A stretch of DNA of 64,000 nt from an uncultured Nitrospiraceae bacterium (GTDB lineage: Bacteria; Nitrospirota; Nitrospiria; Nitrospirales; Nitrospiraceae), in contig CAVPLT010000003.1 of NCBI GenBank assembly GCA_963706325.1, forward strand, positions 1 through 64,000, written 5' to 3'. The notes under the pieces are model-generated. The model saw only the letters and a list, made by a program, of their open reading frames with translations. It ran no database searches and had not been told where the DNA came from. A program made the translations under genes and the position numbers. This document shows, piece after piece, positions 5,430 through 38,720 of the stretch; position 1 is the first letter of the stretch; every line of letters starts with the position of its first letter.

Positions 5430-5658
5430 AATGTCGGGCAGGATTCCCTTTAAAAAACGCGCTTGAGTCGAGCAAGCCAAGACGGCTTTTTTTCTCTGCT
5501 GAGAGTGTGTTTGGTCTGGCCGATCTTGACGAAGAACACTCCATCTGCAACTTCCTCGTTGGGAAATCGTGCGGCCTTTTACGGGTGTGTAGACCGCTTT
5601 TTCGTTCCCAACATTGGGACGTTCTGAGATAAAACCGCTTGAGACGTTTTGACTGCAT
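5430..5658 (-). pseudogene. Degraded Crp/Fnr-family cNMP-binding domain
   Basis: Pieces across frames (NVGNEKAVY, EVADGVFFVKIGQTKHTL, LGLLDSSAFF, ESC) are colinear with KVGSGKTFLY, DTADSVFYIQEGRVKLTV, VAILERTNFFGESC of 22472..23128. Confidence 0.5.
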
Positions 5659-5865
5659 ACACGGGACACACCCGCAGAATGTTATGCGTAAAAGCGCTAC
5701 GGCAACACAGAGAGAAGAACGCGATCCGAGCTTTAGCGCTTGCGCCTAGGGAGGACTCCCTTGCCAGACCTGTTCCTCTCTCGGCCATGCTCAAGCTACT
5801 GGCGTCAGCACAGCACATTGGGGCCGAATGTGTGTGTCAACATTGGCGCAGCGCGCAAGCGATTT

Positions 5866-8367
5866 TTAATCAAGACTGTACGTCGCGATAGGCTTGTGAA
5901 AACCCTTCAGAGTTAGGTCGCCAATATGTTTCCCCCGAAAGTCATTGTTAACACTTTGCCACACTCGCTCGGATATCAGGATTTGCCCGTGATCGGCTTT
6001 ACTGCAAAGCCGAGCCGCCAAATTAGTGACCGGACCGATTGCGGCATAATCCTTACGACCTTCGAAGCCCACCACGCCCAGGGAAGCATAGCCCGTGGCA
6101 ATCCCGATGCCGGCGCCGAGGCCAATGCCGCGCTTGTTCCACTCACGACATAAATCAACGACACGATAGCGCATTGCGATCGCCATCCTCACGCCCTGTT
6201 CGATATGGTTCGGCTTCGGAACCGGATCATTAAGAAATGCCATCAGCGCGTCCCCGGAAAACCGTTCCAATGTTGCTCCGTATTCAGAGACGATGGCACC
6301 CATTTGGGACTGATATTCCCGAAGGACCGCCATTAAGTCCTCAGGAGCCGCACTTTCTGCGAACTCGGTAAATCCTCGCAGATCAATAAACACCACCGTA
6401 ATATTGGTCCGATGCCCTTTCAAAAACTCTTCTCGGTCTCCAGCTAGAATCATCTCCGCCAAGTTCGAGGGCAGAAAACGCGAGATTTTCTCTTTTTGCA
6501 GCTGAACCAACTCGCGTTCCTGAGCCCGAGCATGAATTAGATTTCCCACTCTGGCCAGCAGCTCATGTTCATCAAATGGCTTGGCTAAATAGTCATCCGC
6601 ACCCGCTTCCAGGCTTTCCACGCGCGCGTCGGTCCCCGCCCGAGCAGTTAAGAACACCACAGGGATAGAGCGTAGGGTGGAATCCGCACGTATTGCCTTG
6701 AGCAAATCGTATCCGCTCATCCTTGGCATCATCGCATCGGTAAGAACTAACTCCGGACGGTTTAACCGGATCTTTTCTAAAGCGTCGGCTCCATCGTTAG
6801 CCAATATCACACGATATGGCCTTGCCAGTACGCGGTGCAAGTACGTCCTCATATCAGCGTTATCATCTGCCACTATGACTATCGGACGATTATCAGCAAT
6901 GGTTGTCTCAACTAATGGCATTTCGTTTACGTCATCAGCCGAACGGTTAATAGGAAGGAACGTGATATCATCTTCCTCTTCGAGTGACACCACATTGCCC
7001 AGACTGCTATTGCTGCCTCTGGAAATCGTGATCGTGAAAGTAGACCCCCGTCCAAGAGAACTATCAACTGCAATCGTCCCCTCATGCAGTGTCACTATCT
7101 CTTTTACTAGGGCGAGTCCGATTCCACTCCCCTCGTAGCGCCTGGTCGCACTGCCTTCCACTTGGGTAAAACGGTCAAAAATGCGTCCCTGCTGGTCCGA
7201 TTGGATCCCTATACCATTGTCCTCAATTTCAAGCTCAACGGTCGTTTCTTTCACGAGCAAACGGATCCACACTTGCCCCTGTTCTGGGTCGCTGAATTTA
7301 AAGGCGTTTGACAGTAAGTTAAACAACACCTTTTTCATCTGCCGTGCATCGGCTTCCAGCGGAACGGGTTCATTGAGTCCCTTTAGATGAACTCGACGGG
7401 GCTGGCTGGAATCGAAATTAGTCACAACATTTCGTACCAGGCCTGCAAAATCGATGCAGCGCTTTCTTGCGGAGGCTAGTCCACTGTCGAACTTAGCCAA
7501 GTCCAACAGCTCGTTAATGAGGAACAACAATCTAGACGTGTTACGCAAACCCGACTCGATGAGGTCTTGGCACTCCGGATTAGGAGATAGATTGAGCAGC
7601 GTCTTTAACGCGCCTAAGCTTAGGGTGAGAGGCGTACGGAGTTCATGACTGATATTGGCAAAGAATTCCGTCTTCAGCCGATCTAATTCGAGGAGCTTTT
7701 TGTGAGACTCCTCCATCTCCTGACGCGCCCGACGCTCCGAGATTCTCGCAAAAAATTCAGCACGCTGTAGGCGTTCATACAGGGATACAGAAAAGAGAAG
7801 CGCAACGGATGTCCAGATGAGAAAAAACGAATTTTCTATTGCGGCATTAGTATCTATTGACGAGACGGGCTCGAAAAAGTTTGCACTATAATAGGTCGTA
7901 ATCGTGGCCAGTTGCGCTATCAAATGGCTGGGCCATGATACAGGTACGATCACGGCGGCGGCCAAGAAAACCAAATTAAGTCCATTGTAATACTGGGACG
8001 TAAATCCGCCTAAAACAACGGTCATGTGGACGATGCAGATATTACCGATGAGTACCCAGAGAATCGTTAATCCATTCGGCGTGACAAGAGGAGCACGGTA
8101 TCTCAAGGCCAGGAAAGCTAGGATCAATCCGGCTTCGAGGATACTACGGGTCAGTAAAAGCTCCCCAAGATGCTCTCGATGAAGGAGAACATCCGCCGCA
8201 ATGAATACAGGATTGGCGACCAGTCCCAGATAATAAAGAACTTTCAGTCGTTCAGACGTGAAGTGGCGGCGCCAATCGGCATAGTTAGCCATATCATCCG
8301 GCCGAGTAGATGCCTCGTCTAGTATTTCCGACGTTGCGCTTCCTCTGCTTTGGCCTGTCTGAATCAT
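5866..8367 (-). CDS. Membrane hybrid: multi-TM sensor, HisKA/HATPase, REC, class III adenylate/guanylate cyclase
   Basis: About 6 TM helices; SHELRTPL; NLLSNAFKF, DNGIG, GSGIGL; REC (ADDN...TDAMMP...KPF); FIDLRGFT, ERFSGD, IGPVTNLAARL. Confidence 0.93.
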   Translation of the reverse strand: MIQTGQSRGSATSEILDEASTRPDDMANYADWRRHFTSERLKVLYYLGLVANPVFIAADVLLHREHLGELLLTRSILEAGLILAFLALRYRAPLVTPNGLTILWVLIGNICIVHMTVVLGGFTSQYYNGLNLVFLAAAVIVPVSWPSHLIAQLATITTYYSANFFEPVSSIDTNAAIENSFFLIWTSVALLFSVSLYERLQRAEFFARISERRARQEMEESHKKLLELDRLKTEFFANISHELRTPLTLSLGALKTLLNLSPNPECQDLIESGLRNTSRLLFLINELLDLAKFDSGLASARKRCIDFAGLVRNVVTNFDSSQPRRVHLKGLNEPVPLEADARQMKKVLFNLLSNAFKFSDPEQGQVWIRLLVKETTVELEIEDNGIGIQSDQQGRIFDRFTQVEGSATRRYEGSGIGLALVKEIVTLHEGTIAVDSSLGRGSTFTITISRGSNSSLGNVVSLEEEDDITFLPINRSADDVNEMPLVETTIADNRPIVIVADDNADMRTYLHRVLARPYRVILANDGADALEKIRLNRPELVLTDAMMPRMSGYDLLKAIRADSTLRSIPVVFLTARAGTDARVESLEAGADDYLAKPFDEHELLARVGNLIHARAQERELVQLQKEKISRFLPSNLAEMILAGDREEFLKGHRTNITVVFIDLRGFTEFAESAAPEDLMAVLREYQSQMGAIVSEYGATLERFSGDALMAFLNDPVPKPNHIEQGVRMAIAMRYRVVDLCREWNKRGIGLGAGIGIATGYASLGVVGFEGRKDYAAIGPVTNLAARLCSKADHGQILISERVWQSVNNDFRGKHIGDLTLKGFHKPIATYSLD

Positions 8368-8494
8368 TCTTTAATCCGACCCAATGGTCGGTATCATAGG
8401 AGTTCTACAGAACGTGTCACATTTGGCATAAGTTATGAACGCTGGATCAATCTGGAATGCCAGTGAAGGTCGCACGGCATCATGACGGCGTTAC

Positions 8495-9868
8495 TCAAAA
8501 TCGATAGCTGACGGTGTTATAGACATAATAGGCGCTCACTGATTCGGACGCGTTTGGACCGAAAGGCAGGGAAGAATTTGTGTATGTCACGGAATTCTTA
8601 ATGCCGTAGACGGCCCCAATGTCGAATGCCCACCTCTCGGTGAAACGAAAGCCGAACCCACCTGTGAAGTGGTGTTCTAGTATGAGTGGTGCTATCGGAC
8701 TCAACGTTTGTTTCGGTACTGGATTATTGCCGTAATTATAGCCCATCCGCAAAACTAGCCGGTCTCGCTCTTGCCATGCCACTTCTTGGAGAAGGGCATA
8801 CGATACCCCGATGCCTAGCACGACTTGATCCTTCCAATTAAAGGGAATATTGAGATTCACTTGAGCGGGGGCAAGGGGGTTATTCGGATTCGTGGCCGTA
8901 ATCTCCATGGTATTGATTGAAGCCCAGTTGATCCAACTCGTCGTCAGTGCAATCAACAGCGGCTCGATCGGTCTCACCGCCATTGACACGTCGACCTGCT
9001 GTGGCCACTTAAGACCGGCCACTCGCGCATCATAATTTACAGTACCTAATCCAAAGGCTGAAAAATTAAGCGCGGCCTGGCCGTTGTTGTAATCGAAACG
9101 CACTGGAGAGGTATAAGTAGCGCCGACCGTCAACCAAGGAAACGCTCGGTACATTGCTCCAACTTTTACTCCGAACACGACATCTGAGGGGCATTGGTCA
9201 CCCAGGCCACCGAGACCGCCATTCCTCGCACAACGGTCGCGTATGTCCAACCCAGCGAACCCAGTCGGAACTCCAGGTCCGGGAAGAACAGACGTTCCCG
9301 GGAAAAGGCGCAGGGAAACGTCAGAATATCCGATACTGGGGGCAATCCCGATCGATAGCTTTTCCGTAGCTTCATAGCTGAGTGCGATGGCGAACTTGAG
9401 ATACCGAAAAAATGACGACGTATCATCGCGTGTTCCAAACGCCGTTTGGAGGTTTCGAAAATCTGTCCCGAATCCTCCCTGCGTAAATATTCCGGCGCCC
9501 ACTGTGAGGCCAGGCACGGATGCAAGACGGGTAGCATACCCGACATTTCCTATGGCAAATATATGATTCTGGCCCGCGATCTGGTCATTATTAAAGATGT
9601 CCGAATGCCGAACGAACGCCTGTAAGGGTCCCGCCGTGACATCGAGACGGCTGCCTTGAATTAACGACAACGCGGCTGGGTTCGTGTTAATCGCAGATGT
9701 GTCGGCAACCGCGACGTGGCCCGCTCCTGCAAGCGCGGTGGATTCAGCGGAAAATCCAATAAGTTGGGGGCCGTTAATGGCGAAGGAGAGATTCGAGTCT
9801 AACAGCAGCAGTATACCGACGAAAATCGGTGCCCAATAGACAATCCTTAGCCACGGTGCCCTCTGCAT
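8495..9868 (-). CDS. FadL/TodX-family outer-membrane channel for hydrophobic compounds
   Basis: Signal peptide, ALAGAG...AINTNPAAL hatch motif, amphipathic beta strands, terminal YRF; AAGGAG before ATG 9868. Confidence 0.85.
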   Translation of the reverse strand: MQRAPWLRIVYWAPIFVGILLLLDSNLSFAINGPQLIGFSAESTALAGAGHVAVADTSAINTNPAALSLIQGSRLDVTAGPLQAFVRHSDIFNNDQIAGQNHIFAIGNVGYATRLASVPGLTVGAGIFTQGGFGTDFRNLQTAFGTRDDTSSFFRYLKFAIALSYEATEKLSIGIAPSIGYSDVSLRLFPGTSVLPGPGVPTGFAGLDIRDRCARNGGLGGLGDQCPSDVVFGVKVGAMYRAFPWLTVGATYTSPVRFDYNNGQAALNFSAFGLGTVNYDARVAGLKWPQQVDVSMAVRPIEPLLIALTTSWINWASINTMEITATNPNNPLAPAQVNLNIPFNWKDQVVLGIGVSYALLQEVAWQERDRLVLRMGYNYGNNPVPKQTLSPIAPLILEHHFTGGFGFRFTERWAFDIGAVYGIKNSVTYTNSSLPFGPNASESVSAYYVYNTVSYRF

Positions 9869-9959
9869 GCTGGTCTCCTTTTTAAAACAGGTGCTGTTTT
9901 TTCCTCCAATGTACTTTTTGCTACCAGGCGCGCTATCGGTCATTCCGAGTCAACGTTAT

Positions 9960-10748
9960 TTAGAGACTCAGTTCCTGACCTTCTTTCAAGATACTCAGAT
10001 TTGGAATGTCAAGAGTTTCGAGTTGTTGCGTGATGGCGTCATGGAATGGCGGCTTAAGATGATAGGCATAGACTTGCACTTGAGTATTGTGCAGTTTTGC
10101 CCATTCCTTCGAAAGGAGTGCAGGAGTGAGGTGCTTGGCCTGCCTTGCAATTGCCGATAGCTCATTGGGAAAGGATGATTCGATGAAGGCCGCTTTGAGA
10201 TCCGGAACCGCCCGGGCTTGTGCCCAAATTTCCTCTGTCTCATAAGTGTCGCCGCTGTACAACCACGCCGCGCGAGGGCTCTTGATGATGTATCCCACAG
10301 TAGGTACAGAATGATTCACTGCGATCGGCATGACTTCGAGATGGTGGACCGACACCGATTTTCCAGGTTCCAAGACCTGTCCCTTCAAGACCGGGCGTTT
10401 CCGATTCGGCAACTCAAAAAAATTGGGGTACAGCGTGTCGTTAAACACATGCTCTCTCAGCCCTTGCAAAACCGGCTCAGTCGCCATAACCACGAGTGAC
10501 TCATCGAAAGCGTGGGCGAGATTGTCTACCAGGGTGGGGAGGCTTTTGATGTGATCGAAATGAAGATGACTCAACAGAACGAAGCGAATCCTCCGTTGCT
10601 CAGGCAGGGTGAGCTTGGAACCGATCGTGCCAGCATCTAAGAGAACGGCATCGTCAATGAGGAATCCACAACTTTCGTGTTGTACCGCTCCGGCCGCGCC
10701 GTCAATGAGCTGATCGGATCCATGGCACCCCAACACCTTGATGTGCAT
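9960..10748 (-). CDS. Class II 3',5'-cyclic nucleotide phosphodiesterase (metallo-beta-lactamase fold)
   Basis: VLGCHGS, LLDAGT, SHLHFDH, NHSVPTVGY, YSGDT, ESSFPN, KHLTP, YHLKP. Confidence 0.88.
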   Translation of the reverse strand: MHIKVLGCHGSDQLIDGAAGAVQHESCGFLIDDAVLLDAGTIGSKLTLPEQRRIRFVLLSHLHFDHIKSLPTLVDNLAHAFDESLVVMATEPVLQGLREHVFNDTLYPNFFELPNRKRPVLKGQVLEPGKSVSVHHLEVMPIAVNHSVPTVGYIIKSPRAAWLYSGDTYETEEIWAQARAVPDLKAAFIESSFPNELSAIARQAKHLTPALLSKEWAKLHNTQVQVYAYHLKPPFHDAITQQLETLDIPNLSILKEGQELSL

Positions 10749-10795
10749 ATGTGGACTGCGTCTCCGACCTGAACACCGGTTGCCTGACCTCTTGC

Positions 10796-12106
10796 CTATC
10801 TAACGGAAGTCTTTGGAGGTTGCAGGGGCAGGTAAATGTGAAACGTAGTCCCCGTGCCCAACGAACTGTCCACAGTAATGGTGCCGTGATGGGCCTCCAC
10901 CACATCTTTGACAATCTTGGTTCCTAACCCTGTTCCGCCCTGCTTACTACTCTTGGCACCCGGAGTGAATAGCCGATCGCGTATGTCTGGTGACATGCCT
11001 TTCCCTGTATCTGCCACCATGACATGAACTCCAATTCCAACAGGTTCTTCTCTTGCGCTTACGGTAATCTTTCCTCCTGCGGGGACCTCCGGAATGGCAT
11101 TGTTGATAAGATTATAAAAGGCGTTGAACAGTCGTCGCTCGTCAGCCACGAAGACGGGTATTTGCTCGAGCTGCGCGGTCTGGATCAAGATCCCTTTTTT
11201 GTCGGCCGACCACTTGAGGGTTTCCGTCACATCATTGACGACCTTGTCCAGCCGGCAGGCGGCGAACTCGGGCGTTGTGCTCAGTCCCTTGACACAATCC
11301 GCAATCTCCTTCACCCGGTCCTGGATCCTTCGCGTAGAATTCTCCACCATCTCCACCACTTCATTGCAGCGATCGAAACTTTCTCTCGCCTGCTTATTTC
11401 CGCGCCGAAGAGCGTCTTCCAGCAAGTCCTTGAGTTCTTCATGCATCAATCCGGCACCACACACCACAGGCATCAACAAATTCTTAATGTCATGACTGAT
11501 GTCGCCAAGTAACCGCGTGACCTCTGCCAATTTCGCCTCTTCATAGAGGCGCGCTTGCTCGATAGATGAGGCGGCGATCGCAGACACGATGCTCAAAATG
11601 GCGACATCATCCTCATCCAGTAACCCTTCGCGTTTGTTGAGCACCTCCAGCACGCCGATCGGCTCCCCTTCCCATCGCTTGAGGGCAATCGCAATCATAT
11701 CGCGAGTGGTATGCGAGGTCAGTTCATCGATTACAGCAAGATGGCGAGCGTCCTGTTTGGCGTCGGAGATAATTAAAGGCTTTCCGGTCTGAAAGACGGT
11801 TCCCGCGATTCCCTGATCCCAAGGAATAACGGTCCCAGTTTTGACGGGGCTATCACCAATGGAGTGGCGGAAGATGAGTTGTTGGGAGGCAGGATCGGCA
11901 ATGAGGATCGAACCGCACTCGGCCTGAACGACCTCAAGCGCGGTCCGAAGGGCCCGGCCGATCAGCTCATCCAGCGTCAGGTGTTCAAACAACGCTTCAC
12001 TGATACGGCGAGCCGCTTCGAGCTCACGATCTTTTCTTACCTGGCGACGATCATCCTGCCGGCGAAGGAGACCACGACGGTCATGGGACAAGCATTGGTC
12101 GGCCAT
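10796..12106 (-). CDS. Cytoplasmic GAF histidine kinase
   Basis: GAF (GIAGTV...IGVLEVLNK), SHDIKN H-box, NLINNA, DTGKG, GTGLG. Confidence 0.92.
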   Translation of the reverse strand: MADQCLSHDRRGLLRRQDDRRQVRKDRELEAARRISEALFEHLTLDELIGRALRTALEVVQAECGSILIADPASQQLIFRHSIGDSPVKTGTVIPWDQGIAGTVFQTGKPLIISDAKQDARHLAVIDELTSHTTRDMIAIALKRWEGEPIGVLEVLNKREGLLDEDDVAILSIVSAIAASSIEQARLYEEAKLAEVTRLLGDISHDIKNLLMPVVCGAGLMHEELKDLLEDALRRGNKQARESFDRCNEVVEMVENSTRRIQDRVKEIADCVKGLSTTPEFAACRLDKVVNDVTETLKWSADKKGILIQTAQLEQIPVFVADERRLFNAFYNLINNAIPEVPAGGKITVSAREEPVGIGVHVMVADTGKGMSPDIRDRLFTPGAKSSKQGGTGLGTKIVKDVVEAHHGTITVDSSLGTGTTFHIYLPLQPPKTSVR

Positions 12107-12242
12107 CGGACCCCTAGATCGGTCAGGACAGAATCTACTGGGAGAGCGATGTGGTTACTTCACGGAGTCGCTGGCATTGGCCTGTAGTCGCTCCGGGGTC
12201 GCGACAATATCCTGCAGGCCGTCGCTCACAAACAGTACTCTC

Positions 12243-12647
12243 TCAAGTCGTGAACTTGTCCTTATACACGTGCGCTTTCACATGTTTTGCGACTATCTCC
12301 GTCAATTTCTCGGGACTGACTGGTTTCACGAGGTAGTCGACTACCCCCTGTTTCATGAGTTCGGTTGCATCCTGCACTTGTGGCTGGCCGGTGAGAATGA
12401 TGACTGGCACCGACGGATATTGTTGCCTAAAAAAAGCCACGGCTTCTTTGCCATTTATCTTGGGCATCTGGATGTCGCATAAGATCGCGTCAACCATGCG
12501 CGGATTGTCTCCGGAACCTATTTCTTTGATGGCTTTCTCTCCGTCTTCAGCTTCAACCACGTCGAACCCGGCCTTCGTCAGCGTCAGGCGAACCGTCTTT
12601 CTAATGTCCTCTTCGTCGTCCACAATCAATACGCGTCCCCGTCCCAT
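12243..12647 (-). CDS. Single-domain response regulator
   Basis: IVDDE, CDIQMP, LTG, KP; GAGGAG-like RBS. Confidence 0.92.
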   Translation of the reverse strand: MGRGRVLIVDDEEDIRKTVRLTLTKAGFDVVEAEDGEKAIKEIGSGDNPRMVDAILCDIQMPKINGKEAVAFFRQQYPSVPVIILTGQPQVQDATELMKQGVVDYLVKPVSPEKLTEIVAKHVKAHVYKDKFTT

Positions 12648-12956: not shown

Positions 12957-14234
12957 ATGCCTACCGAGTCAGACCCTACGCCCCTCAAACCAAGTCCCGA
13001 GCTAGAGGCCGCCCAACGCATCAGCGAGACGCTATTTCAGCATTTGGAAGTTGACGATCTGGTCGAGCTTACCCTATCGGTCGCACTGCAGGAAGTCGGC
13101 GCAGAGGCAGGGTCAATTCTCCTGGTGGATCACGACGCTCAACAGCTCATATTTCACCATTCGATTGGAATGGGGCCCGTACCACGTGGAACGGTCATAG
13201 GCTGGGATCAGGGTATTGCGGGAAAAGTCTTTCAATCAAAGGAACCGGCTCTTATTCCCGATGTCAAACAGAACGAACATCATTTCGCCGGTATTGATGC
13301 AATCACTGGTTACATGACGCGTGACATGATCAGCCTCCCGCTTAAACAATGGAAGGGCGATCCTATTGGTGTGCTGAACGTTCTCAATAAGCGGAGTGGA
13401 AGTCTGGATGAAGGCGACTTAGCACTTCTGACGATCGTTTCCGCATTTGCAGCCCTTGCTATTAGGCAAGCGCGGTTGTACGAGGAAGCCAAGTTGGGCG
13501 AGGTGGTGCGTCTTATTGGAAATATCGGACACGATTTGAAAAATTTCTTACAGCCCATAGTTTCGGGAGCCTGGCTGATAAAGCAGGAGATGGATAGAGC
13601 ATTCCAGTTGCATCCCAACGAAGGAGACGGCCATTTACGGGAGAGTAGACATAATTGCGATGAAGCCATTGTGATGATTCAGAAAACAACCGGACGGATC
13701 CATGATCGTTTCAAAGAAATTGCAGATTGCGTGAAAGGGCTCAGCGCCCCAGCGCAATTCCTGCCTTGCCGGCTGGACGTTGTCGTAGGGGATGTACTTC
13801 AAACGCTACGCATCTTAGCTGCCGATAAGGAAATTGCATTAACCTCCAGAAAACTCGATATATTGCCATTGATCCGAGCCGATCATCGCCGTCTGTATAA
13901 TGCCTTCTACAATCTTGTGAATAACGCCATTCCCGAAGTTCCGAAAGGCGGGTCAATTACCGTCGATGGCCAGCTGGAAGACAATGGACAAGGGGTCATT
14001 GTGTCGGTCTCTGACACAGGACGAGGTATACCACAGGAAATTCGTGAGCGGCTATTTACGTCTCGGGCGATGAGCACCAAGGCTGATGGGACAGGCCTTG
14101 GAACCAAGATAGTCAAGGACGTCATCGATGCTCATCGAGGAAAGATCACAGTGGAAAGCGACGTCGGCCAAGGTACCACTTTTCGTATCCACCTACCTCT
14201 CGATCCAGACCAGGTTACCAAACCAAAGACGTGA
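12957..14234 (+). CDS. Cytoplasmic GAF histidine kinase (paralogue of 10796..12106)
   Basis: ELEAAQRISE, GAF, GHDLKN, NAFYNLVNNAIPEVP, GTGLGTKIVKDV. Confidence 0.92.
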   Translation: MPTESDPTPLKPSPELEAAQRISETLFQHLEVDDLVELTLSVALQEVGAEAGSILLVDHDAQQLIFHHSIGMGPVPRGTVIGWDQGIAGKVFQSKEPALIPDVKQNEHHFAGIDAITGYMTRDMISLPLKQWKGDPIGVLNVLNKRSGSLDEGDLALLTIVSAFAALAIRQARLYEEAKLGEVVRLIGNIGHDLKNFLQPIVSGAWLIKQEMDRAFQLHPNEGDGHLRESRHNCDEAIVMIQKTTGRIHDRFKEIADCVKGLSAPAQFLPCRLDVVVGDVLQTLRILAADKEIALTSRKLDILPLIRADHRRLYNAFYNLVNNAIPEVPKGGSITVDGQLEDNGQGVIVSVSDTGRGIPQEIRERLFTSRAMSTKADGTGLGTKIVKDVIDAHRGKITVESDVGQGTTFRIHLPLDPDQVTKPKT

Positions 14235-16483: not shown

Positions 16484-17275
16484 ATGATTCAACTGTATCG
16501 AGGAAGCGGTTCCGGAGAGCTTGAACTTCTTAACGAGGCACTGCCTCTGAATGAATGGAATACGTTACGCACTCAGACGTGCAGGCTCCTACGAGCTCGA
16601 AAGGAAAACCTAGCGGCAGAGGAATTGGAATCGATTCCGTTCGAGATACGAGACGGAACCAATACCTTTGGTGACGAGTTTTCTGCGCTGTACTGCTCGC
16701 TTCCCATGAAGGAGTATGTAGCTCTAGCCCAAAAAAATGAGAATCCAGAATTTAAGGCGGCCTTTAGATCGGTAGCTGAAACCATTTCAGAACTTGGACA
16801 CTACATCCGCTTTATTGCCGTTGAACTAAAATCTAAAACAGGCCCTGATCCGGTGTCATCCCCAAATCTTCAAATTACATCGGATTCTGTAGAGCGAGCG
16901 CTCGCTGATGCAGAGCAACTCATGAACAGGCAAGGAGCAACGAGTGGAATTGATCGAATCCAGACGGCCTTTCACGAGTTTATGCGAGCTGGTTGTGTAA
17001 AAAATGGCATTACCATCCCACCTGATTCCAGTATTACGGCGTTGTTTAAATTGCTGCGCGAGAACCATCCAGCTTTCTCAGCAAGAACGGTAAATAATAC
17101 GGATTTGCAGCGAGTGCTTAGAGGCATAGCGACGATTGTGGATGCGCTAAACCCATTGCGAAACCGGGCAAGTTTGGCTCATCCAAATGAAGCGTTACTC
17201 GACGAGGCCGACGCTATGCTGACGATCAACTGCATCCGTACGCTTCTTCACTACCTTAATGCTCGACTACAATAA
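16484..17275 (+). CDS. Abortive-infection family protein (Abi_C/HEPN-like C-terminus)
   Basis: AT-richer 263-aa ORF; SITALFKLLRENHP...LNPLRNRASLAHPNE carries an R-x6-H motif. Confidence 0.75.
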   Translation: MIQLYRGSGSGELELLNEALPLNEWNTLRTQTCRLLRARKENLAAEELESIPFEIRDGTNTFGDEFSALYCSLPMKEYVALAQKNENPEFKAAFRSVAETISELGHYIRFIAVELKSKTGPDPVSSPNLQITSDSVERALADAEQLMNRQGATSGIDRIQTAFHEFMRAGCVKNGITIPPDSSITALFKLLRENHPAFSARTVNNTDLQRVLRGIATIVDALNPLRNRASLAHPNEALLDEADAMLTINCIRTLLHYLNARLQ

Positions 17276-17932: not shown

Positions 17933-18952
17933 CTATTCGACAACCTTCTCCATCGTATTGATGCTTACATGCGGCCACTGGATGAGACCTGGGCAGCAGC
18001 CGGGGGGCAATCCATCCGAGCGCGGGAAGAAGTCCAGCATGACCAGTTGCGAATATTGCAGCCGCAACTTCGGCTCCCCATTCTTGTCTTTCTCCTTCAA
18101 TTCCTGAATCCAGAAGGTAGACTTCACCACCGTCGCATTCGCCTGCCTCACGACGAATGGAATGTTGACCACGCCACCCGTCGGCCGCGTCGAATCAACG
18201 TCGAGGACTGTCGTCTTCTCAATCTCGACCCCTTCGTTGGCTTTTTCGAGCAGATCGTTCGGGCTCACCGGGTTGAACAGTCCCTGAAAAAACTTTTCTG
18301 GCTTTTCACCAAAGTGTTTGTATGGCGCCAGGTAGGGGTTATTGAGATCTTGATCGACCCCGATCGGCAAACCACTGATATCAGGAATGCTTTGTGCTCC
18401 TGAGTGTTCACTGCTTCGGCCTAAGGCCAACACCGAGTCGCCATGAGGAATGGTCGCGAGTCGTCCAATATTGAGGCCCTCAGTGATGCCATTCGTCATA
18501 TGCAGCCACAAACCCGGTTCATGATGAATGACATCTCCAGGCGAACCCGCCAGGCCGCTGTTCGGGAAGTCATCACCAGCGATTTGCCTTATTCTCTGTT
18601 GATAGTCTAATGCCACGAGAAACTGATCGGTATTAGCGGGAGTTCCAGGAACGAGACGGATGCCACGATTCGGTACGGCCTTGTCGACTAGGATAAACTC
18701 AAGCTCTTCGTTGTATTGGTGGAGCAGCAACCGATAATTGAGGGGGAAGGGAACCCCCGGGGGGGGCGGCGCTACAAACGGCAGGGCAATCATATTCCAA
18801 CCACGACCTGGTAGGTTCGGCAAGTTCGCCCACTTTCCCGGAAGAAGCTTCAACGGTCCAAGCTCCTGGTCATTCGTCTTAGGTTTTTCAAGCCTTCGCT
18901 TTTTATCCTTGAGCTTTGCCGGTTCCGTTTTCATCGTCTTAAAATCTTTCAT
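17933..18952 (-). CDS. Putative haem-binding protein / FMP-type peroxidase family
   Basis: LGPLKLLPGKW, GRGWNMIALP, VPNRG, IHHEPGLWL, RLATIPHG, LQYSQ, WPHVSINT; family recalled from motifs. Confidence 0.65.
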   Translation of the reverse strand: MKDFKTMKTEPAKLKDKKRRLEKPKTNDQELGPLKLLPGKWANLPNLPGRGWNMIALPFVAPPPPGVPFPLNYRLLLHQYNEELEFILVDKAVPNRGIRLVPGTPANTDQFLVALDYQQRIRQIAGDDFPNSGLAGSPGDVIHHEPGLWLHMTNGITEGLNIGRLATIPHGDSVLALGRSSEHSGAQSIPDISGLPIGVDQDLNNPYLAPYKHFGEKPEKFFQGLFNPVSPNDLLEKANEGVEIEKTTVLDVDSTRPTGGVVNIPFVVRQANATVVKSTFWIQELKEKDKNGEPKLRLQYSQLVMLDFFPRSDGLPPGCCPGLIQWPHVSINTMEKVVE

Positions 18953-22471: not shown

Positions 22472-23128
22472 TCAGTCATGCAACACGATGTTCAAGAGGG
22501 AGCTGTGAATGTGCAGGCCGCCGCTGTTGTATTGGATTAGGCCAAGCTTTCGGAACTTATTCATGAAGAAACTGATGCGTGACCGCGTGGTGCCGACCAT
22601 CTCGGCCAGTGTTTCCTGGCTAATCTTCGCGATGACTGGTTCTGGCTTGCCCTCCTTTCCGAAATGGGCTAACAGCAACAGCACGCGGGCCAAGCGCTTC
22701 TCGCTGGAATTGAAGAGTTGATCTACGAGGTCGGCCTCGATGCGAGCGTTGCGAGAGAGGAGATACGCCATAAAGAGCTCTGAGAAGGTGGATTCGTCGT
22801 GGAGGACTTGGATCATAGCGGTTTTATCGATACGCACAATCGTTGAGGCGTCAAGGGCCCTAGCGGAAGCCATGCGCAGCGGTTGTCCGGCCAGACAGCT
22901 TTCCCCAAAAAAGTTCGTACGCTCCAGAATGGCGACGACCGCCTCCTTGCCCTTTGCTGAGACCACGGTCAACTTCACCCGTCCCTCCTGAATGTAAAAG
23001 ACCGAGTCAGCGGTATCGCCCTGGGAAAACAGGACGTCATTCTTCTTCGAATAGAGAAAAGTCTTTCCGCTGCCCACTTTGGCCAGGAAGGCGGTGGGGT
23101 TGAATGCGGTGGAGGGTGTGCGTGCCAT
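22472..23128 (-). CDS. Crp/Fnr-family transcriptional regulator
   Basis: cNMP-binding domain (FFGESCL...RMASA), SEKRLARVLL, SQETLAEMVGTTRSR HTH. Confidence 0.93.
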   Translation of the reverse strand: MARTPSTAFNPTAFLAKVGSGKTFLYSKKNDVLFSQGDTADSVFYIQEGRVKLTVVSAKGKEAVVAILERTNFFGESCLAGQPLRMASARALDASTIVRIDKTAMIQVLHDESTFSELFMAYLLSRNARIEADLVDQLFNSSEKRLARVLLLLAHFGKEGKPEPVIAKISQETLAEMVGTTRSRISFFMNKFRKLGLIQYNSGGLHIHSSLLNIVLHD

Positions 23129-23804: not shown

Positions 23805-25124
23805 ATGGCTGAAGTCACAGTTTCCCCCCAGGTACTCACTCCCGCCCAGCGTTCCGAGTCTCACTTGCTGGCGCAATACGCCATCACCCTGGTCTTGGCA
23901 GAGTCCGCCACCCTGCAGGAGGCCATTCCGGCCATTCTACGAAGCATAGGCGAAAGCCTCGGCTGGCACTTGACCCTATTTTGGAAAGTGGATGAACAGA
24001 CGAGTGCGTTGCGGTTTGCCAGCCTCTGGCATCACTCGAAGATCGACGCATCTGGATTCATTGCAGACAGCCGAGACCGACCCATTCAGCACGAGGGAGA
24101 ACTGATTGAACGTGTCTGGAAAACTGGCAAGCCGTTTTGGGCTCCCGACATTGTCCTGGAAACCGGGTTCCGCCGAGCATCAATCGCGGCCCGCGCGGGT
24201 CTCCATGGCTGGTGCGCCTTTCCGGTTCGAAAAGGCAACCGGATTTATGGCGTCATTGAATGCTTCAGCCCTGAGATCCGCCAGCCGGATCATGCAGTGC
24301 TGCATATGATGGCCGACATCGGCATTAAGATTGGTCAATTTGTCGATCGTAAGGAGACTGAGGTAGCGCTTCGCATTTTGGAGGCGCATGACGAGGAAGA
24401 GGCCCGGTTGGCTGAAGTGGCACGCGTATTGGGAGACATCGCACACGACATCAAAAATATGCTGATGCCAGTCGTCTCAGGGACGTCCCTTCTGGAGGAG
24501 GAACTCAACGAGTGCTACGGGCGCATGCCGCAACCGGTGACGGCCGCCGTGACAACGAGCCGTGAGCTGACAAAGGAGCTGATCGAGATGATTCAGAACG
24601 GATCCCGGCGGATTCAACATCGGGTCGGAGAATTTGCCGACTCCATCAAGGGACATACTCGCTCTCCGCACATTGCTCCCTGTCACATGGCCAAGCTAGT
24701 GTCGAGCGTGTATGCCATCCTTCAAATCCCTGCCAAGGAATGCGGCATTACCCTTTGCGTCGAGGGCCTCGACAGATTGCCCATGATTCAAGCGGATGAG
24801 AGCCAGCTGTTCAATGCCTTTTACAACTTAGTTAATAATGCCTTGGCGGAGGTCCCGCCCGATGGCTCAATCACCGTTAAGGGCCAAACGGAACCCGGCG
24901 GGAGGAGGATTATGGTGTCGGTCGTCGACACCGGAAAGGGCATGCCGCCCGAAATCCGGGAAAGTCTGTTTACCTACCATGCGATTAGCCGAAAGGTTGG
25001 AGGCACCGGACTTGGAACAAAAATTGTGAAGGATGTGATCGACGCGCATCAAGGGGAAATAACCGTGGAGAGTGAGCCAGGTGTCGGAACCTCGTTCCAT
25101 ATCACGTTACCGGTGGGGGGATAG
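23805..25124 (+). CDS. Cytoplasmic GAF histidine kinase (third paralogue)
   Basis: GAF; EEARLAEVARVLGDIAHDIKN; NAFYNLVNNA; GTGLGTKIVKDV. Confidence 0.92.
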   Translation: MAEVTVSPQVLTPAQRSESHLLAQYAITLVLAESATLQEAIPAILRSIGESLGWHLTLFWKVDEQTSALRFASLWHHSKIDASGFIADSRDRPIQHEGELIERVWKTGKPFWAPDIVLETGFRRASIAARAGLHGWCAFPVRKGNRIYGVIECFSPEIRQPDHAVLHMMADIGIKIGQFVDRKETEVALRILEAHDEEEARLAEVARVLGDIAHDIKNMLMPVVSGTSLLEEELNECYGRMPQPVTAAVTTSRELTKELIEMIQNGSRRIQHRVGEFADSIKGHTRSPHIAPCHMAKLVSSVYAILQIPAKECGITLCVEGLDRLPMIQADESQLFNAFYNLVNNALAEVPPDGSITVKGQTEPGGRRIMVSVVDTGKGMPPEIRESLFTYHAISRKVGGTGLGTKIVKDVIDAHQGEITVESEPGVGTSFHITLPVGG

Positions 25125-31777: not shown

Positions 31778-32029
31778 CGCCTCGCAGGCCGCCAAATTTC
31801 GCCGCTTCTAGGGGCCGGACCAATAAGTCGATGTGGCACCCACAATGTCCGAAATAAACGACAATTCTTGCTCGATAGCAATGCAAATCGCGGCGGACGA
31901 AACTAAGTAAGGGCACGGTTATTTTGCCATAGAAATTCGCGACATGATGGATGCAGTAAAGGCGAGATTAGGCCAAGAAGATTCTCAAGGTTAAAGAAGG
32001 GGAAGTGGCGGCTGGGTGTTATCGAGGGG

Positions 32030-32580
32030 CTACAGCGGCATGCGGTTGGGTGAAGTGTGCTCGCTTCAATGGCGGCAGATTAACTGGATCGAAGGCAATG
32101 TGTTCCTCCAAGCTGAAGACACCAAGACCAAGACACCACGGGTGCTCTATCTGACCGGAGACCTGTATAGGGTCCTGATGGCTTGGAAAACCCGTTGCGA
32201 GATTAAGTGGCCGGCCTGTTCGTGGATCTGCCATCGAGGTGGCATTCGCCTCCAGGGCCTGAAACGCTCCCAGCGTAAAGCCTGTGGAGCGGTCGGGCTT
32301 GAGAGAATGGTGATGGATGAGAAGAAAAAGCGGCTCGTCTGGGATGGAAGAATTCCACATGACTTCGGGCGCACAGCGGTGCGGAACATGGTCCGGGCTG
32401 GAGTACCGGAAAAGGTGGCTATGACCATTTCTGGCTATAAAACCAGGAGTGTCTTTGCCCGGTACAATATCGTGAATGAACGGGACCTCGAACAGGCTGC
32501 GCGGTCCCTCTCGGCTTACTTCGAGCAGCAAACGATTACACTCGCGGTTACACTGGCAGAATTGAAGGGTGAGAGCAGTG
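32030..32580 (+). pseudogene. Tyrosine integrase C-terminal half (int3), catalytic residues mutated
   Basis: Begins at YSGMRLGEV; HDFG instead of HDFR and SGYKT instead of SGHKT; close paralogue of int4. Confidence 0.88.
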
Positions 32581-32622
32581 GTGTCGCAAACCGCCAACAG
32601 GTTGAATCATCAATTAGATTTC

Positions 32623-32667
32623 TGGAGCCGGCGAGTGGAATCGAACCACCGACCTGCGGTCTACGAA
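32623..32667 (-). mobile_element. att site 3: 3' half of tRNA-Thr(CGT)
   Basis: 44 of 45 nt identical to att1 (loop reads TTCGTAG). Confidence 0.88.
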
Positions 32668-32998
32668 AACCATTTCCACAAGAGCCCATCATCCCCAAAC
32701 TCCCTACTCCACCAAAGGGAAACGAAGCGCAGCGCGATGGCTAGCAGCTTAACTACGTTGCAGTGGGTTGCGTGGAGAGTGACGGTTCCGCGCTCAGGAA
32801 GGACACACTCACGGGCACACCGCCACGAGCAGGGAGTGCCTGGCGTTCACTTTATCCATACACCTAACTGTGCAGTTCCCTTCCCACCCCCGCCCTCCAC
32901 TTGGTCACACCCTGCCACCGTCATTTGGTCGGGTCCCATACCCGTCATGTGCGGTGAAAACAAAAGGGCAGCTTTAGGAGGAGGCAGGTATTGAGCCG

Positions 32999-33187
32999 CT
33001 AGCCACGGTGATACTTAGCCCGGGGCAGAGGGATCGGCTTGGGACGTTTACCAGACAGCTCCGACCTTAGGACGAACGCCAGTATGATTCCCCCAACGAC
33101 CAGTCCGGCGGACCCGCCGTAGAGCATCGCGGACTCAAAACTCAGCGGGAAAAGTGACGGAAGTCCGTTAAGCCATAAGTCAGCCAT
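32999..33187 (-). CDS. Small single-TM hypothetical protein
   Basis: Hydrophobic GGSAGLVVGGIILAFVL followed by a basic tail. Confidence 0.5.
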   Translation of the reverse strand: MADLWLNGLPSLFPLSFESAMLYGGSAGLVVGGIILAFVLRSELSGKRPKPIPLPRAKYHRG

Positions 33188-33494
33188 GCCCTAAACACAC
33201 CACAGGGTGGGAATGAAGTCAAGGCTGCAAAGCCGGACCCACGACACAGCTCTGGCTAACGGCTGCCACCCGCCCGCTGGGCTCGGCTACGTCCCGCGAG
33301 ATTTCGTGTGGAGCACCTCCTTCCCATCAGCCGTACGTGGGTATAAGCCAAGCCAGGAGTATTCCTAGTTACGCGGCGATGGCAGAAGCACTAGGATCAC
33401 GGTCAATTGAGCACGACTCGGCCTTTAATTCGGTTAATGGAGGCAGCAGATGTGGCACATGCAGGAGGTCTTACAAAGGAGCAGCGGTGTGCGA

Positions 33495-33780
33495 ATGGCG
33501 TTCCATGGAACCCTGCTCATGGCGGTATGGAGCGTCATGCCCGTCATGCTGTCGGCTGCGTATGCGCAGCCCAAGGAGCCAGTGCCGGCATCAGGAGTTC
33601 CGCCAGGAGGGATAGATGCTGACTGTCGCGTTGCCCTTGGGAAACTTCCCTGCCAGGGCATTAAGCAGGGCAGCGGTCGCATCCGGACGTGTTATGAAGA
33701 CAACAAAGGCCAACTCACACCGTCATGTCGCCAGCAGGTGGAAGAACATATGTCTGAAGCCAGTGCCATTATGCTTATGC
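33495..33780 (+). pseudogene. Exported cysteine-rich-repeat protein, N-terminal remnant
   Basis: Signal peptide then DADCRVALGKLPCQGIKQGSGRIRTCYEDNKGQLTPSCRQ; only one repeat, then low-complexity sequence. Confidence 0.45.
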
Positions 33781-33844
33781 CGGCGGCGGCAGGGGGGCGG
33801 CGGCGGCAGGGGCGGCAGCCGAGCCGATCATTGAACACAAACGT

Positions 33845-34486
33845 GTGCGCCCCAGCGAAACCTACGTCGCCGGGTTTGGGGGGTACACGTTTGGCGGAAA
33901 GTTGAATAATGTGGAGGGCCCCGGCTTGCTGCCCGGTGGGAATGTCGGTGATCGTGATCTTGCGGATTCGGCGGTCTACGGCGGAAAGCTCGGCCATTTC
34001 TTTGGCGACCGCATGGATTGGCTCGGCGTGGAGATGGAAGCGTTCAACACCACGCCCCACGTGGAGCAGCAAGGACTGACGCCCGGAGCCCATTTGCGGG
34101 TTACGACCTTGGCTTTCAATCTCATCGGGCGGCTGAAATTCGGCTGTGAGACAAAACCGCTGCGCACGGAGGCACGGACGGAGGGAGAGAAACGCTATGA
34201 AACCCACTATGAGCGGGAGTTCTGCCGGGTGCAACCCTATGGCGGGGTGGGGCTGGGCGTCTTTTTTGCCAACCTCTCGAACAATGGCACCAGCGCGTCC
34301 GATAATGCCGTGCCGGGCCTCAATGCCTTGGCTGGCCTACGCTATTACTTCAACGAACGGGTGGCGCTGTTCGGGGAATACAAATACAACCGGGCGGCGC
34401 TCGATTTGACGAATGGTCCCATCGGGGGACTCAAAGGCGATTACGAGGCGAATCATCTGGTCGGAGGGCTGTCGTTCCACTTCTAG
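33845..34486 (+). CDS. Eight-stranded outer-membrane beta-barrel protein; signal peptide apparently lost
   Basis: ETYVAGFGG, VYGGKLGHFF, QPYGGVGLG, LFGEYKYN, terminal FHF. Confidence 0.75.
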   Translation: MRPSETYVAGFGGYTFGGKLNNVEGPGLLPGGNVGDRDLADSAVYGGKLGHFFGDRMDWLGVEMEAFNTTPHVEQQGLTPGAHLRVTTLAFNLIGRLKFGCETKPLRTEARTEGEKRYETHYEREFCRVQPYGGVGLGVFFANLSNNGTSASDNAVPGLNALAGLRYYFNERVALFGEYKYNRAALDLTNGPIGGLKGDYEANHLVGGLSFHF

Positions 34487-35005
34487 GCTGTGCCTCGCGC
34501 CGGCGAGGGACACCAGTCCGGCCTGTCGCGCAGGGGCCCGGAGCCAGATCTTTTGCCCACAGGGGGGCCAGAGCCATGCTAAAACGGGGGTGCCCGGGCG
34601 GTGCGGGAGGGCGCAGTCGAATGACCCGCGATTGGTTTATTTTCTGCCGTTCGAATGATGGACACGAAAGAGAAAAGTCTGTTCAGAATCTCGCTGATTG
34701 TGTATCAGCACGAAGCGGAAACGCGTGGAAAACGCAGTGATCTTTAGGGCGGGTGCCAAGGTGGTGCCATTAAGGGCGAACACATAGCCCATGGGCTCAC
34801 GACTGGGCACTCGCGCCACTACACCGGTTAGGGCCAGGTTTTCCCTTCACATCTAAGTCGCCGCCTCGTACCAATTCCATTCGTTTTGTCCCTATCCTTC
34901 ACACTAGGCTAGCACCAGCTCCCTACCCCCACGTGGCGCATCCCCCTACCGTCAATCGGTAGGTACCCTATCGGGAAATGTGCGGTCGCACCTCGTAGGC
35001 ACGGT

Positions 35006-35326
35006 TCATGGGACCTCTTCCCTGGCCCCATACCCTGCTCTCCCAAGTGGTTCGGTCGATGACGGTTTCCGCTGGTCGCGCAATTTCAGAATATTGAGGA
35101 AATGACCGTACTGATGGCTCAGGAACGTGGCCTTTCGCAGCGAACATCCATGCGTGACGAAGTAATCACGGATGGTCCATGCCGGCGGCATCATTTCCTG
35201 CTCGTGCACAAATAAACAAATTTCATAGAGGCCTTTCCAATTGTCCTGCTCCAATGGGTCGTCCTCTGGGCACAAGCGGACGAACTCCTGAAGCAGTATC
35301 TCGAGATGCGGGTCAACCTGTTCCAT
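35006..35326 (-). CDS. Hypothetical protein
   Basis: GGAGG RBS before MEQVDPHLEILLQEF. Confidence 0.6.
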   Translation of the reverse strand: MEQVDPHLEILLQEFVRLCPEDDPLEQDNWKGLYEICLFVHEQEMMPPAWTIRDYFVTHGCSLRKATFLSHQYGHFLNILKLRDQRKPSSTEPLGRAGYGAREEVP

Positions 35327-36389
35327 GTGCCCTCCCTCCGTACGAGTGATGCACCGGACTATAGGACACCCTCTCCTCAGGGCAACATCCCGCAAAGATA
35401 TAGTTGGGCTAGCTCCTTCGAGAGTCGAAGGGGCCGGTCTCACGCCGCACGTTCTTTAGAGCATCTCGACTGATGAGTTCCAGCGGAAAGACAAACGGTG
35501 GAAGTTATGGTCTCGAACTTATTAATTGCCTCCATGCCGTCGACCGCTTCCACGACGACTTTCAAACGCGGGATGCACGTCGAGGCCGTCCGGCAGGACC
35601 GTTGTCCGGCATCCCAGAGAGTTCGCCTCACGAGTATGGAGATAGGGAGAGGAGCGCTGAACCCCTCATCGTCTTCCTAAATGGGTTTTTAGGCTGGGAA
35701 TGCACGAGGCCACGAAAAAAATGAGGTCTACATTGGTGGGTTTGAGACATATGCGGTGCACTTCAACCGCTTTATCCCATCCACTTTAGCGTGGCTGCTC
35801 GGCGACTATCATCGCCGTAAGTCAGCCCGCAAGTCCATCTAATGAGCGACCTGAGACGGGAATCTTCGTTGATGCTGGGTGCCCAGGAGTCAGGGAGTCA
35901 GGCGAGCCACCAGACCCACGTGAAGGTAAGAATAGAAACAGGGTGGTCATGGGACCAGCAACCAGGGCGAGGTCATGGATCCTTTCCCACAGGAGGATGC
36001 CGGTCACACGATGCACTTGGGTTTCTCACTTCCCGGGGGTTCACCCCCTATGCGCAGCTACGGGACCGTTCCTCCGCGGTCCAGGCTAACTGTTGCACAG
36101 TGGGTTTGGGAAGCCAACGACTTGGCGTGCGAACGATGAGACCTAATCTTCCGGCGCGAGACGAAGCAATCTCATGACGGCCTTCCCGTAAAGACATTCC
36201 AAACCGACTTGCTCGCAATGGACCTGTTTCGGTTTTCATCACGTACCTCCCAACATCGGAGTGAATTGGCGTCAGAGGAAAGCCTACCGCGTTCCCTGTC
36301 GTCCGGCACTGGGAAACCCCCTAGTCCATCGAACCTTCACGTCCTCAGTTAATAGAACCGAGGGAGTCTTCCTGGGAGCGACTGATCGG

Positions 36390-38059: not shown

Positions 38060-38720
38060 GATTCCCCATATTCCCCAGTTCAAGGAGCACAATATCCGTT
38101 CTGGCTTCTTTGAGCATGAGGATTTCCTGGCGCTCCGTGGTGCCCTGCCCGACTATGCCCAAGTGGCCGCCACGCAGGCCTACTACAGCGGCATGAGAAT
38201 GGGCGAAGTCTGTTCGCTCCAATGGCGACAGATTAACTGGACGGAAGGCAAATTGTTCCTCCAAGCTGAAGACACCAAGACCAAGACGCCACGGGTCCTC
38301 TACCTTACTGGAGACCTGTATAGAGTCCTGCTTGCCTGGAAAACTCGCTGCGAGAACAAATGGCCGGCCTGTTCATGGATCTGCCATCGAGGCGATTCGC
38401 CTACAGTGCCTAAAACGCTCCTGGCGTAAAGCCTGCGAAGCGGTCGGACTGGGGCGTATGGTGATGGATGAGAAGAAAAAGCGGCTCGTCTGGGATGGAC
38501 GAATCCCTCATGACTTTCGGCGCACGGCTGTCCGGAATATGGTCAGGGCTGGGGTACCAGAAAAAGTGGCCATGGCCATTTCCGGCCACAAAACCAGGAG
38601 CGTGTTTGACCGGTACAACATCGTGAACGAACGGGACCTCGAACAGGCCGCACGATCCCTCTCGGCCTACTTCGACAACCAGACGGTTACACTGGCAGAA
38701 TTGAGGGGTGAGAGCAACGG
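38058..38720 (+). pseudogene. Tyrosine integrase catalytic domain (int4), frameshifted near 38390
   Basis: [17 protein letters not shown], frameshift, [22 protein letters not shown]. Confidence 0.9.

Follow-up and report, generated by a model that had tools for sequence, protein, structure and literature searches.

A 64,000-nt stretch of DNA (the window; C3:1-64000 of genome G000, which is 4.24 Mb and 96% complete) encodes a FadL-type barrel next to a large hybrid protein that joins a six-helix membrane domain to a histidine kinase, a receiver (REC), and a class III cyclase. Next to these two genes are genes for a phosphodiesterase (PDE), a GAF-domain kinase, and a stand-alone REC protein. 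This is a real and recurrent module, built from known families in an undescribed combination. We propose that it is a FadL-paired sensory cyclase: FadL would deliver a hydrophobic molecule, the six-helix domain would sense it, a phosphorelay would switch the cyclase, the PDE would reset the signal, and a Crp-family regulator would read it out. We put the probability of this reading at roughly 50%. Its observed basis is the domain content of the proteins, their conserved active-site residues, the recurring pairing with FadL, and the state of the genus-core PDE and cyclase in this genome, which are decayed or absent at their usual sites.

A kinase-receiver-cyclase hybrid in a five-gene cluster

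The five genes are intact and all on the minus strand, in the order REC, GAF kinase, PDE, FadL, and hybrid. The intergenic gaps, in that order, are 136, 47, 16, and 127 nt; if FadL starts at 9868, then the PDE-FadL gap is 91 nt. A preliminary description of this DNA had listed six genes in a row. Five of them are as it stated, and the sixth, a Crp gene, is a weak scrap (see below).

The hybrid (833 amino acids; 5866..8367, minus strand) has the layout 6TM-HisKA-HATPase-REC-class III cyclase, where 6TM stands for six transmembrane helices; the domains were identified by Pfam, by motifs, and by alignment to CyaB from P. aeruginosa. In an alignment of 20 sequences, the residues of the H, N, G1, F, and G2 boxes and of the receiver (H241, N354, D383-G387, G413-G417, D544, and K596) are invariant. 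More broadly, the H-box and REC aspartate motifs occur together in 114/120 homologs, and the metal and transition-state motifs of the cyclase are intact in 96–97 of the 97 homologs that carry the cyclase domain. The nearest solved relative of the cyclase domain is the adenylate cyclase CyaB (E = 3.9e-32), and the catalytic residues D662, D706, N782, and R786 align with CyaB's two metal-binding aspartates, transition-state asparagine, and arginine. Compared to hybrids of the CyaC type, the protein has the H-box histidine, the ATP-binding boxes, and the receiver aspartate beside the cyclase; the N-terminal receiver and the two GAF domains are absent.

FadL-cyclase pairing recurs

In 150 other genomes of the family, we found a membrane-kinase-receiver-cyclase match in 10 (one truncated). 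About 13 genomes have a paralog that is either cut off or has a second kinase at its end. For the analysis of gene neighborhoods, we pooled 89 loci (the window, loci from GTDB, and 64 metagenome loci), which form 63 clusters when grouped at 95% identity. Of these, 37 are of the cyclase type and 14 of the second-kinase type; the other 12 are too short to type. After excluding clusters with less than 1.2 kb upstream and no FadL match (6 cyclase-type and 2 second-kinase-type), 31 and 12 clusters were informative. Our family-wide tallies take in up to three genomes that are flagged as unpublished (G006, G053, G076), and no specific claim depends on them.

FadL is directly upstream in 18 of the 31 informative cyclase clusters, versus 1/12 for the second-kinase paralogs. 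These 18 pairings include 9 tandem cases with a window-type FadL, 8 divergent cases with a 'div'-type FadL, and 1 divergent case with a FadL from a third clade. The three FadL clades are deeply separated in a quick tree, which means that the pairing originated repeatedly or that its FadL member was exchanged. At least three of the FadL-cyclase pairings look independent. In L001, L002, and L187, just 1 nt separates the stop codon of FadL from the cyclase's open reading frame (ORF).

The other genes of the cluster were found near homologous cyclases as well. A GAF kinase homolog (45% identity or above) is near the cyclase in 11/37 cyclase clusters, and a similar REC is near the cyclase in 4/37. 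All five genes occur in L187:4768-12320, where FadL and the cyclase form an inverted block that splits the PDE gene; the REC, the GAF kinase, and the 5' part of the PDE are on the far side of that block. In G038, FadL and the cyclase are likely followed, beyond a contig break, by a PDE and a GAF kinase in convergent orientation (we inferred the join). L042 is a separate assembly, with a divergent FadL, the cyclase, a PDE, a REC, and an intact Crp. GAF kinase-FadL-cyclase tandems are found in L039, L215, and L226. By Pfam, an intact Crp is beside the cyclase in two clusters (L042/L209 and L207), although the clusters were not scanned for Crp systematically. The preliminary description had suggested a neighborhood survey, with a gene order unique to this genome counting against it. 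The exact order is indeed found only in the window (1/37 cyclase clusters), but the core pairing of FadL and cyclase recurs.

The membrane domain

The membrane domain of the hybrid (residues ~26–215; 7723..8292, minus strand) contains the motif GGFTSQYYNGLNLV, and its AlphaFold model has six helices (predicted local distance difference test, or pLDDT, of 96.5). The preliminary description, which gave the protein an input domain of about six helices with this motif, was correct on both points. When we compared the model to other structures with VIA-align, the Z scores were 15.8 for ImcA, 15.6 for human adenylyl cyclase AC5, and 14.4 for human AC9 (root-mean-square deviations of 5.2, 4.1, and 3.8 Å, with 204–211 residues aligned); Rv1625c scored 9.1 and the best unrelated row scored 9.8. 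With Foldseek, ImcA was the sole match found (E = 3e-3). The model thus predicts for the sensor the same fold as in the 6TM membrane anchors of adenylyl cyclases.

A fold search of this domain, with CqsS as one of the targets, had been suggested earlier. It led to ImcA by Foldseek and to the cyclase anchors by VIA-align, but not to CqsS: no CqsS chain or model is among the matches listed in our NCBIfam and PDB searches with the domain, and no family named for CqsS or LqsS is among the NCBIfam matches listed for 10 distant relatives. The spacing of the motif may be CqsS-like. Mammalian adenylyl cyclases are described as modulated by fatty acids (PMC12414865), and grafting the 6TM receptor of CqsS onto Rv1625c is described as yielding a response to the lipophilic signal CAI-1 (PMC4821796).

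A profile of the sensor domain has 965 representatives at E ≤ 0.001. Among 80 relatives that we scanned, the output partners of the domain were kinase, GGDEF, class III cyclase, HD, and SpoIIE domains; since it is fused to many types of output, it has the pattern of a mobile sensor. Pfam gave no match for this part of the window protein, including to MASE8 (PF20968.2). Most close homologs carry a precomputed MASE8 label (PF20968.4), and one distant relative scores 23.8 bits, which is below the cutoff of 26.2. Neighbors of the domain in the atlas are labeled MASE8, MASE2, MASE11, MASE7, or MASE6, each at a partial share.

We discarded several other candidate relationships. The matches from a PDB profile search (otopetrin at E = 0.005 and rhodopsin chimeras) were weak and implausible, and an NCBIfam match to lysine exporters (E = 0.007–0.02) was also set aside. 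A GG motif suggested a quinone site of the RegB type, which we dropped because the remaining motif is absent. A set of heme-anchoring histidines is not conserved, as the top histidine column has histidine in 45/95 distant rows.

The FadL barrel

The FadL protein (~457 amino acids with its signal peptide; 8495..9868, minus strand) matches PF03349 with 107 bits (cutoff 29.7). The first in-frame ATG is at 9943, but position 9868 is the likelier start, as an AAGGAG site precedes the ATG there. The protein has the hallmarks of the FadL/TodX/OmpP1 family: a nearly invariant NPA motif, an N-terminal plug, a C-terminal phenylalanine, and a beta-barrel. Its AlphaFold2 model (pLDDT 90) matches E. coli FadL and TodX with Foldseek TM scores of 0.76–0.79, and it matches BamG-type barrels less well (0.57–0.61). 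By sequence, its nearest relatives are TodX, TbuX, and CymD. In TodX and CymD, the hydrophobic solute is described as passing by lateral diffusion (PMC7728783), and rhizobia are described as taking up long-chain N-acyl homoserine lactones (AHLs) via FadL (PMC9938287; PMC7728783). The window FadL also has an extracellular loop with two cysteines (mature residues ~180–195), which is shared with the 'div' clade. This loop is likely closed by a disulfide and near the channel entrance.

FadL genes beside other sensors

To see how often FadL is near signaling genes, we surveyed 60 FadL loci from the best 150 of 274 Pfam matches. In choosing them, longer contigs were favored and neighbors were not looked at. 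(L120 has no callable FadL ORF and L122 has two.) A kinase or cyclase gene is within 600 nt at 28/51 loci of the 'div' clade, versus 27/751 for background ORFs of similar size in G000. The same test gave 0/9 for a separate FadL clade, whose members are mostly beside patatin or sulfatase genes. Because the surveyed genomes are related, we consider this to be a pattern and not a statistic.

In G000, each of the three FadL genes directly adjoins a sensor kinase gene. The two outside the cluster (L112:9469-13720 on C1 and L113:6263-10219 on C7) have a V4R-like-GAF-kinase-REC protein and a membrane-PAS-kinase-REC protein as their partners. Among the wider set of FadL partners are V4R-like GAF kinases, membrane-PAS kinases, STAND-type cyclases (L004 and L165), and a LuxR protein with an autoinducer-binding domain (L168). 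The V4R label is weak (E = 0.029 in one homolog). Several FadL loci also encode lipid-oxidizing enzymes.

A few loci deserve mention. At L143:2022-8551, L148:1689-8212, and L156:1502-8281, DyP-peroxidase genes form a tandem array with the genes for FadL and for a V4R-like GAF kinase, and two of the three have a weak match to cytochrome P450. These loci may make and sense an oxidized fatty-acid signal. L103:2-11135 resembles an oxylipin-type cluster: there, FadL is followed by a patatin, an animal-type heme peroxidase, a lipoxygenase-like gene, a RoxA-like cytochrome, and a V4R-like gene. In a metagenome-assembled genome of Nitrosomonas (L004:4240-9311) and at L165:4375-9182, FadL adjoins STAND-type cyclase-AAA-TPR genes. 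The FadL protein from Nitrosomonas and that of the window share 64% identity. At L168:3391-5903, FadL is divergent from the gene for the LuxR protein. Finally, an ATPase of 805–850 amino acids with weak HerA/DUF87 matches is beside FadL genes of two clades and also upstream of one cyclase that lacks FadL (L104, L105, L106, L109, L111, L125, L126, L135, and L189 for all of these cases together).

Cyclic nucleotide genes of G000

The PDE (262 amino acids; 9960..10748, minus strand) is a class II-type enzyme with a metallo-beta-lactamase fold and an HxHxDH motif at residues 61–66. It matches PF02112 with 37.6 bits (cutoff 23.7), over residues 52–141 only. It has no signal peptide, and no solved relative was found at E = 0.001. 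It is the sole intact class II-type PDE that we detected in G000, and the hybrid is the only class III cyclase (by matches to PF00211). Class I and CYTH cyclases were not found in this 96% complete genome.

A class III cyclase is present in all 17 of the same-genus genomes, and a full-length ortholog of the hybrid was found in none of them (0/17). In the two same-genus genomes that we inspected, a CHASE2-type cyclase is the genus-core gene. Its cluster, which is ~10 kb in the relatives, is missing from the syntenic site in G000 (C5 190872-190986), where the flanking genes are about 114 nt apart. A genus-core PDE is present in 16/17 same-genus genomes, and in G000 it is a pseudogene with stop codons and an internal deletion (C4 ~285080-285476). 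With its core PDE decayed and no core cyclase at the usual site, the genome has its only detected cyclase and PDE in this cassette, which would therefore set the cyclic nucleotide level of the whole cell. It appears that the cassette took the place of the ancestral cyclase and PDE of G000.

The readout is a different matter. The preliminary description had placed a decayed Crp gene in the cluster and called the circuit self-contained. What we find is a stop-containing scrap of 45–70 residues (~5438..5647, minus strand) that begins 220–300 nt beyond the stop codon of the cyclase and resembles the N-terminal, cyclic nucleotide-binding part of a Crp protein; no helix-turn-helix part was found. 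By tblastn, it matches two of the genome's three Crp-type proteins (E = 0.001 and 0.005), and its score of 59 against those two was reached by 0/400 random genome segments. Four Crp proteins were tried, and against the other two, the scrap is not above chance. It is probably a real remnant, but it cannot be a working part of the circuit. So, although the cassette carries the only detected cyclase and intact PDE of this genome, "self-contained" does not hold.

The intact Crp-type genes of G000 are in the window (22472..23128, minus strand), on C1, and on C6. The one in the window has both Crp domains (PF00027 and PF13545) and the G-E...R phosphate-binding motif, which makes it a candidate reader of the cyclic nucleotide. 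There is a second Crp fragment at 48895-49353, with 62% identity over 42 residues to the intact Crp.

Proposed mechanism and its alternatives

A hydrophobic molecule, probably similar to a fatty acid, would likely enter the envelope through FadL by lateral diffusion. The six-helix domain would likely sense this molecule and set the balance between kinase and phosphatase activity. Phosphate would then move from His241 to Asp544 and switch the attached cyclase, as in CyaC: in the cyanobacterial enzyme, phosphorylation of the cyclase-adjacent REC is described as activating (PMC3009899). The product would most likely be cAMP. The neighboring PDE would remove the signal and reset its level, and intact Crp proteins (in the window and on C1) would read it. 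The GAF kinase and the lone REC may contribute a second input. Transport, ligand binding, phosphorelay, product, and readout are what we infer here. The lipophilic signal-to-cyclic nucleotide circuit of the preliminary description is partly supported, by the pairing with FadL (18/31), the conserved residues, the predicted anchor-like fold, and the recurrence of the PDE and the GAF kinase; we drop the claim of self-containment.

Several observations weigh against this reading. The genomes behind all of the recurrence counts are related to one another, and in a quick tree of the sensor, the window-type cases group as a single clade (SH-aLRT 94), so we count them as one event. A PDE is near the cyclase in just 3/37 cyclase clusters (with one of the PDEs broken), plus G038 by the inferred join; G093 has a GAF kinase-PDE pair without an adjacent cyclase; and the PDE of the genus is nearly core elsewhere. 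The cassette lacks a signal synthase. An AHL synthase was not found in G000, although the same search gave no match in control genomes either. The gap between the FadL and cyclase genes contains a promoter-like site. Sites of this kind are no more common than in shuffled sequences (8 observed versus 6.8 ± 3.3), and the counts from a terminator scan are likewise not above those for shuffles. As for the sensor, a common fold, itself predicted, does not by itself demonstrate a common function, and even for mammalian cyclases, no binding site in the transmembrane region is described as mapped (PMC12414865). Also, in ACR from Dictyostelium, which has a similar layout, the kinase and the receiver are described as not being critical controllers of the cyclase (PMC3009899). 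By analogy, such fusions may work without their phosphorelay.

A different reading accepts a working kinase-cyclase sensor and makes FadL a co-regulated output or a lipid-handling protein of the envelope, with the 6TM domain responding to the state of the membrane or to a partner protein. Here, the 13/31 informative clusters (42%) that lack FadL would be expected, and the divergent layouts (9/18) fit a regulator and its target as well as they fit supply of a ligand. Moreover, the best structural match of the sensor, ImcA, is described as being governed through a partner protein and not a lipid (PMC10904736), and FadL-like barrels with non-transport jobs exist, as the BamG matches illustrate. 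Yet the FadL and cyclase genes are in tandem and nearly abut throughout one clade; the model is closer to FadL and TodX than to BamG; and unrelated inputs (6TM, V4R-like, membrane-PAS, and LuxR autoinducer-binding) are all paired with FadL, which points to a common need for a hydrophobic input. We consider the co-regulated FadL to be a possible explanation but an unlikely one. It is quite improbable that these are just a loose set of signaling genes on an island in decay that share no function apart from that of cyclase plus PDE. The cluster's GC content is 52.0%, as compared to 56.7 ± 2.2% for the genome (the bottom 2.3% of 601 genome windows). There are three integrase-like ORFs at 32016-38895 and gene scraps close to the cluster, the exact order was seen once, and same-genus genomes lack a full-length ortholog. 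Given the low GC content, the integrase-rich surroundings, and the patchy distribution in the genus, the cassette looks acquired or rarely retained. But an incidental collection would not explain why all five genes are together, rearranged, in L187 and four of them in G038 (by the inferred join), why the GAF kinase-FadL-cyclase tandem is found in three other loci, or why the whole set of five has stayed intact in a genome whose core PDE is a pseudogene.

The wiring could also be as we propose with a second messenger other than cAMP. At the specificity positions, the hybrid has Arg702 and Ala775 instead of CyaB's lysine and threonine, which is not the canonical adenylate cyclase pair, so the product nucleotide is uncertain and cGMP or another nucleotide is conceivable. 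These residues are conserved: Glu-Arg precedes F-x-G-D in 97/97 homologs, and alanine is at the Thr/Asp/Cys position in 96/97. Class II PDEs and some Crp proteins (such as Clr) accept cAMP and cGMP alike. Nevertheless, the nearest solved relative is an adenylate cyclase, lysine to arginine is a conservative change, and the Glu/Cys pair that is typical of guanylate cyclases is absent from the two positions. Another nucleotide seems improbable to us. The cAMP product given in the preliminary description is the likeliest but is not assured: the cyclase is CyaB-like and retains its catalytic residues, and the Arg/Ala pair leaves room for doubt.

Other genes of the cluster and the window

The stand-alone REC protein (134 amino acids; 12243..12647, minus strand; PF00072, E = 1.6e-29) is one of several paralogs in G000 that are 48–59% identical. 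The GAF kinase (436 amino acids; 10796..12106, minus strand) is a cytoplasmic GAF-HisKA-HATPase protein, by its Pfam domains, with His205 in its H-box motif. The window encodes two paralogs of it, at 12957-14234 (56% identical) and 23805-25124 (42% identical).

The named relatives of the window's genes are from Nitrospira or other Nitrospiraceae, and the host is a Nitrospira-type, nitrite-oxidizing bacterium. A TAT-exported molybdopterin oxidoreductase and its iron-sulfur partner (54483-59335, by Pfam) are presumably a nitrite oxidoreductase-like pair. The window also encodes an Abi_C/HEPN-like protein (16484-17275) and an FMP-type heme-binding protein (17933-18952). As the preliminary description had noted, there are no fatty-acid or aromatic catabolic genes nearby, at least among the 30 window ORFs (a subset) that we scanned with Pfam.

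Implications

We speculate, tentatively, that the Nitrospiraceae use an undescribed form of lipid signaling that relies on dedicated FadL barrels. These would supply a cue derived from fatty acids, possibly of the oxylipin type, to receptors that can stand in for one another (the 6TM domain, V4R-like domains, and membrane-PAS kinases). The window cassette would be a portable, cyclic nucleotide version that replaced the host's cyclase and PDE. This broader scheme is rather unlikely to hold. If it is true, it would give the orphan fold of the cyclase anchors a case with a native lipid ligand.

The field has yet to settle if the 6TM anchors of adenylyl cyclases act as ligand receptors: these enzymes are modulated by lipids, and no binding site is described as mapped (PMC12414865). 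Here, a bacterial domain that is predicted to have that fold is repeatedly beside a hydrophobic channel and is fused to an enzyme whose activity is easily read, so a ligand screen in E. coli would be straightforward. The frequent location of FadL genes beside sensor kinases points to an unstudied, lipid-type signaling layer in nitrite oxidizers. It also appears that the cell's own cyclase and PDE were swapped for an incoming pair.

Comparison to known systems

Kinase-receiver-cyclase fusions (CyaC and ACR), FadL-aided uptake of signals (rhizobia), and lipophilic control of 6TM anchors (PMC4821796, PMC12414865) are already known. In the literature that we searched, which leaves most subscription journals outside, we found no published pairing of FadL with a sensor kinase or cyclase, no FadL-linked cAMP signaling in Nitrospira, and no such system as a whole. 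The preliminary description likewise knew of no system with this combination.

Class II cyclic nucleotide PDEs include CpdP from Vibrio and PdeE from Myxococcus. The window PDE resembles them in its metallo-beta-lactamase fold, its HxHxDH motif, and its above-cutoff match to PF02112. Unlike them, it matches the profile only in its N-terminal third and lacks a signal peptide, and its activity is predicted. In the rhizobia, the receptor for long-chain AHLs is a cytoplasmic LuxR-type protein, whereas we propose a membrane kinase-cyclase. What the rhizobial case shares with our proposal is that FadL is described as serving the uptake of a signal and not of food (PMC9938287; PMC7728783).

The sensor domain resembles the anchors of human AC5 and AC9 and of Rv1625c from Mycobacterium, as well as ImcA from P. 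aeruginosa, in having a (predicted) six-helix bundle with short loops that leads into a signaling helix. CqsS-type receptors may be similar, although no CqsS match is among those listed here. The domain differs from the cyclase anchors and ImcA in sequence (6–12% identity), and its output goes to a kinase, with the cyclase reached only via the receiver. ACR (AcrA) from Dictyostelium also has membrane helices, a kinase, receiver(s), and a cyclase in one protein, but it is described as lacking the phospho-accepting histidine (PMC3009899), while the hybrid keeps His241, the ATP-binding boxes, and Asp544. Another parallel in layout is CyaC from Spirulina (Arthrospira) platensis, which has a kinase, a receiver, and a class III cyclase in one chain and is described as being activated by internal phosphotransfer (PMC3009899). 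In CyaC, a receiver is at the N-terminus and there are two GAF domains; the hybrid instead has a six-helix membrane input and a gene that is paired with FadL.

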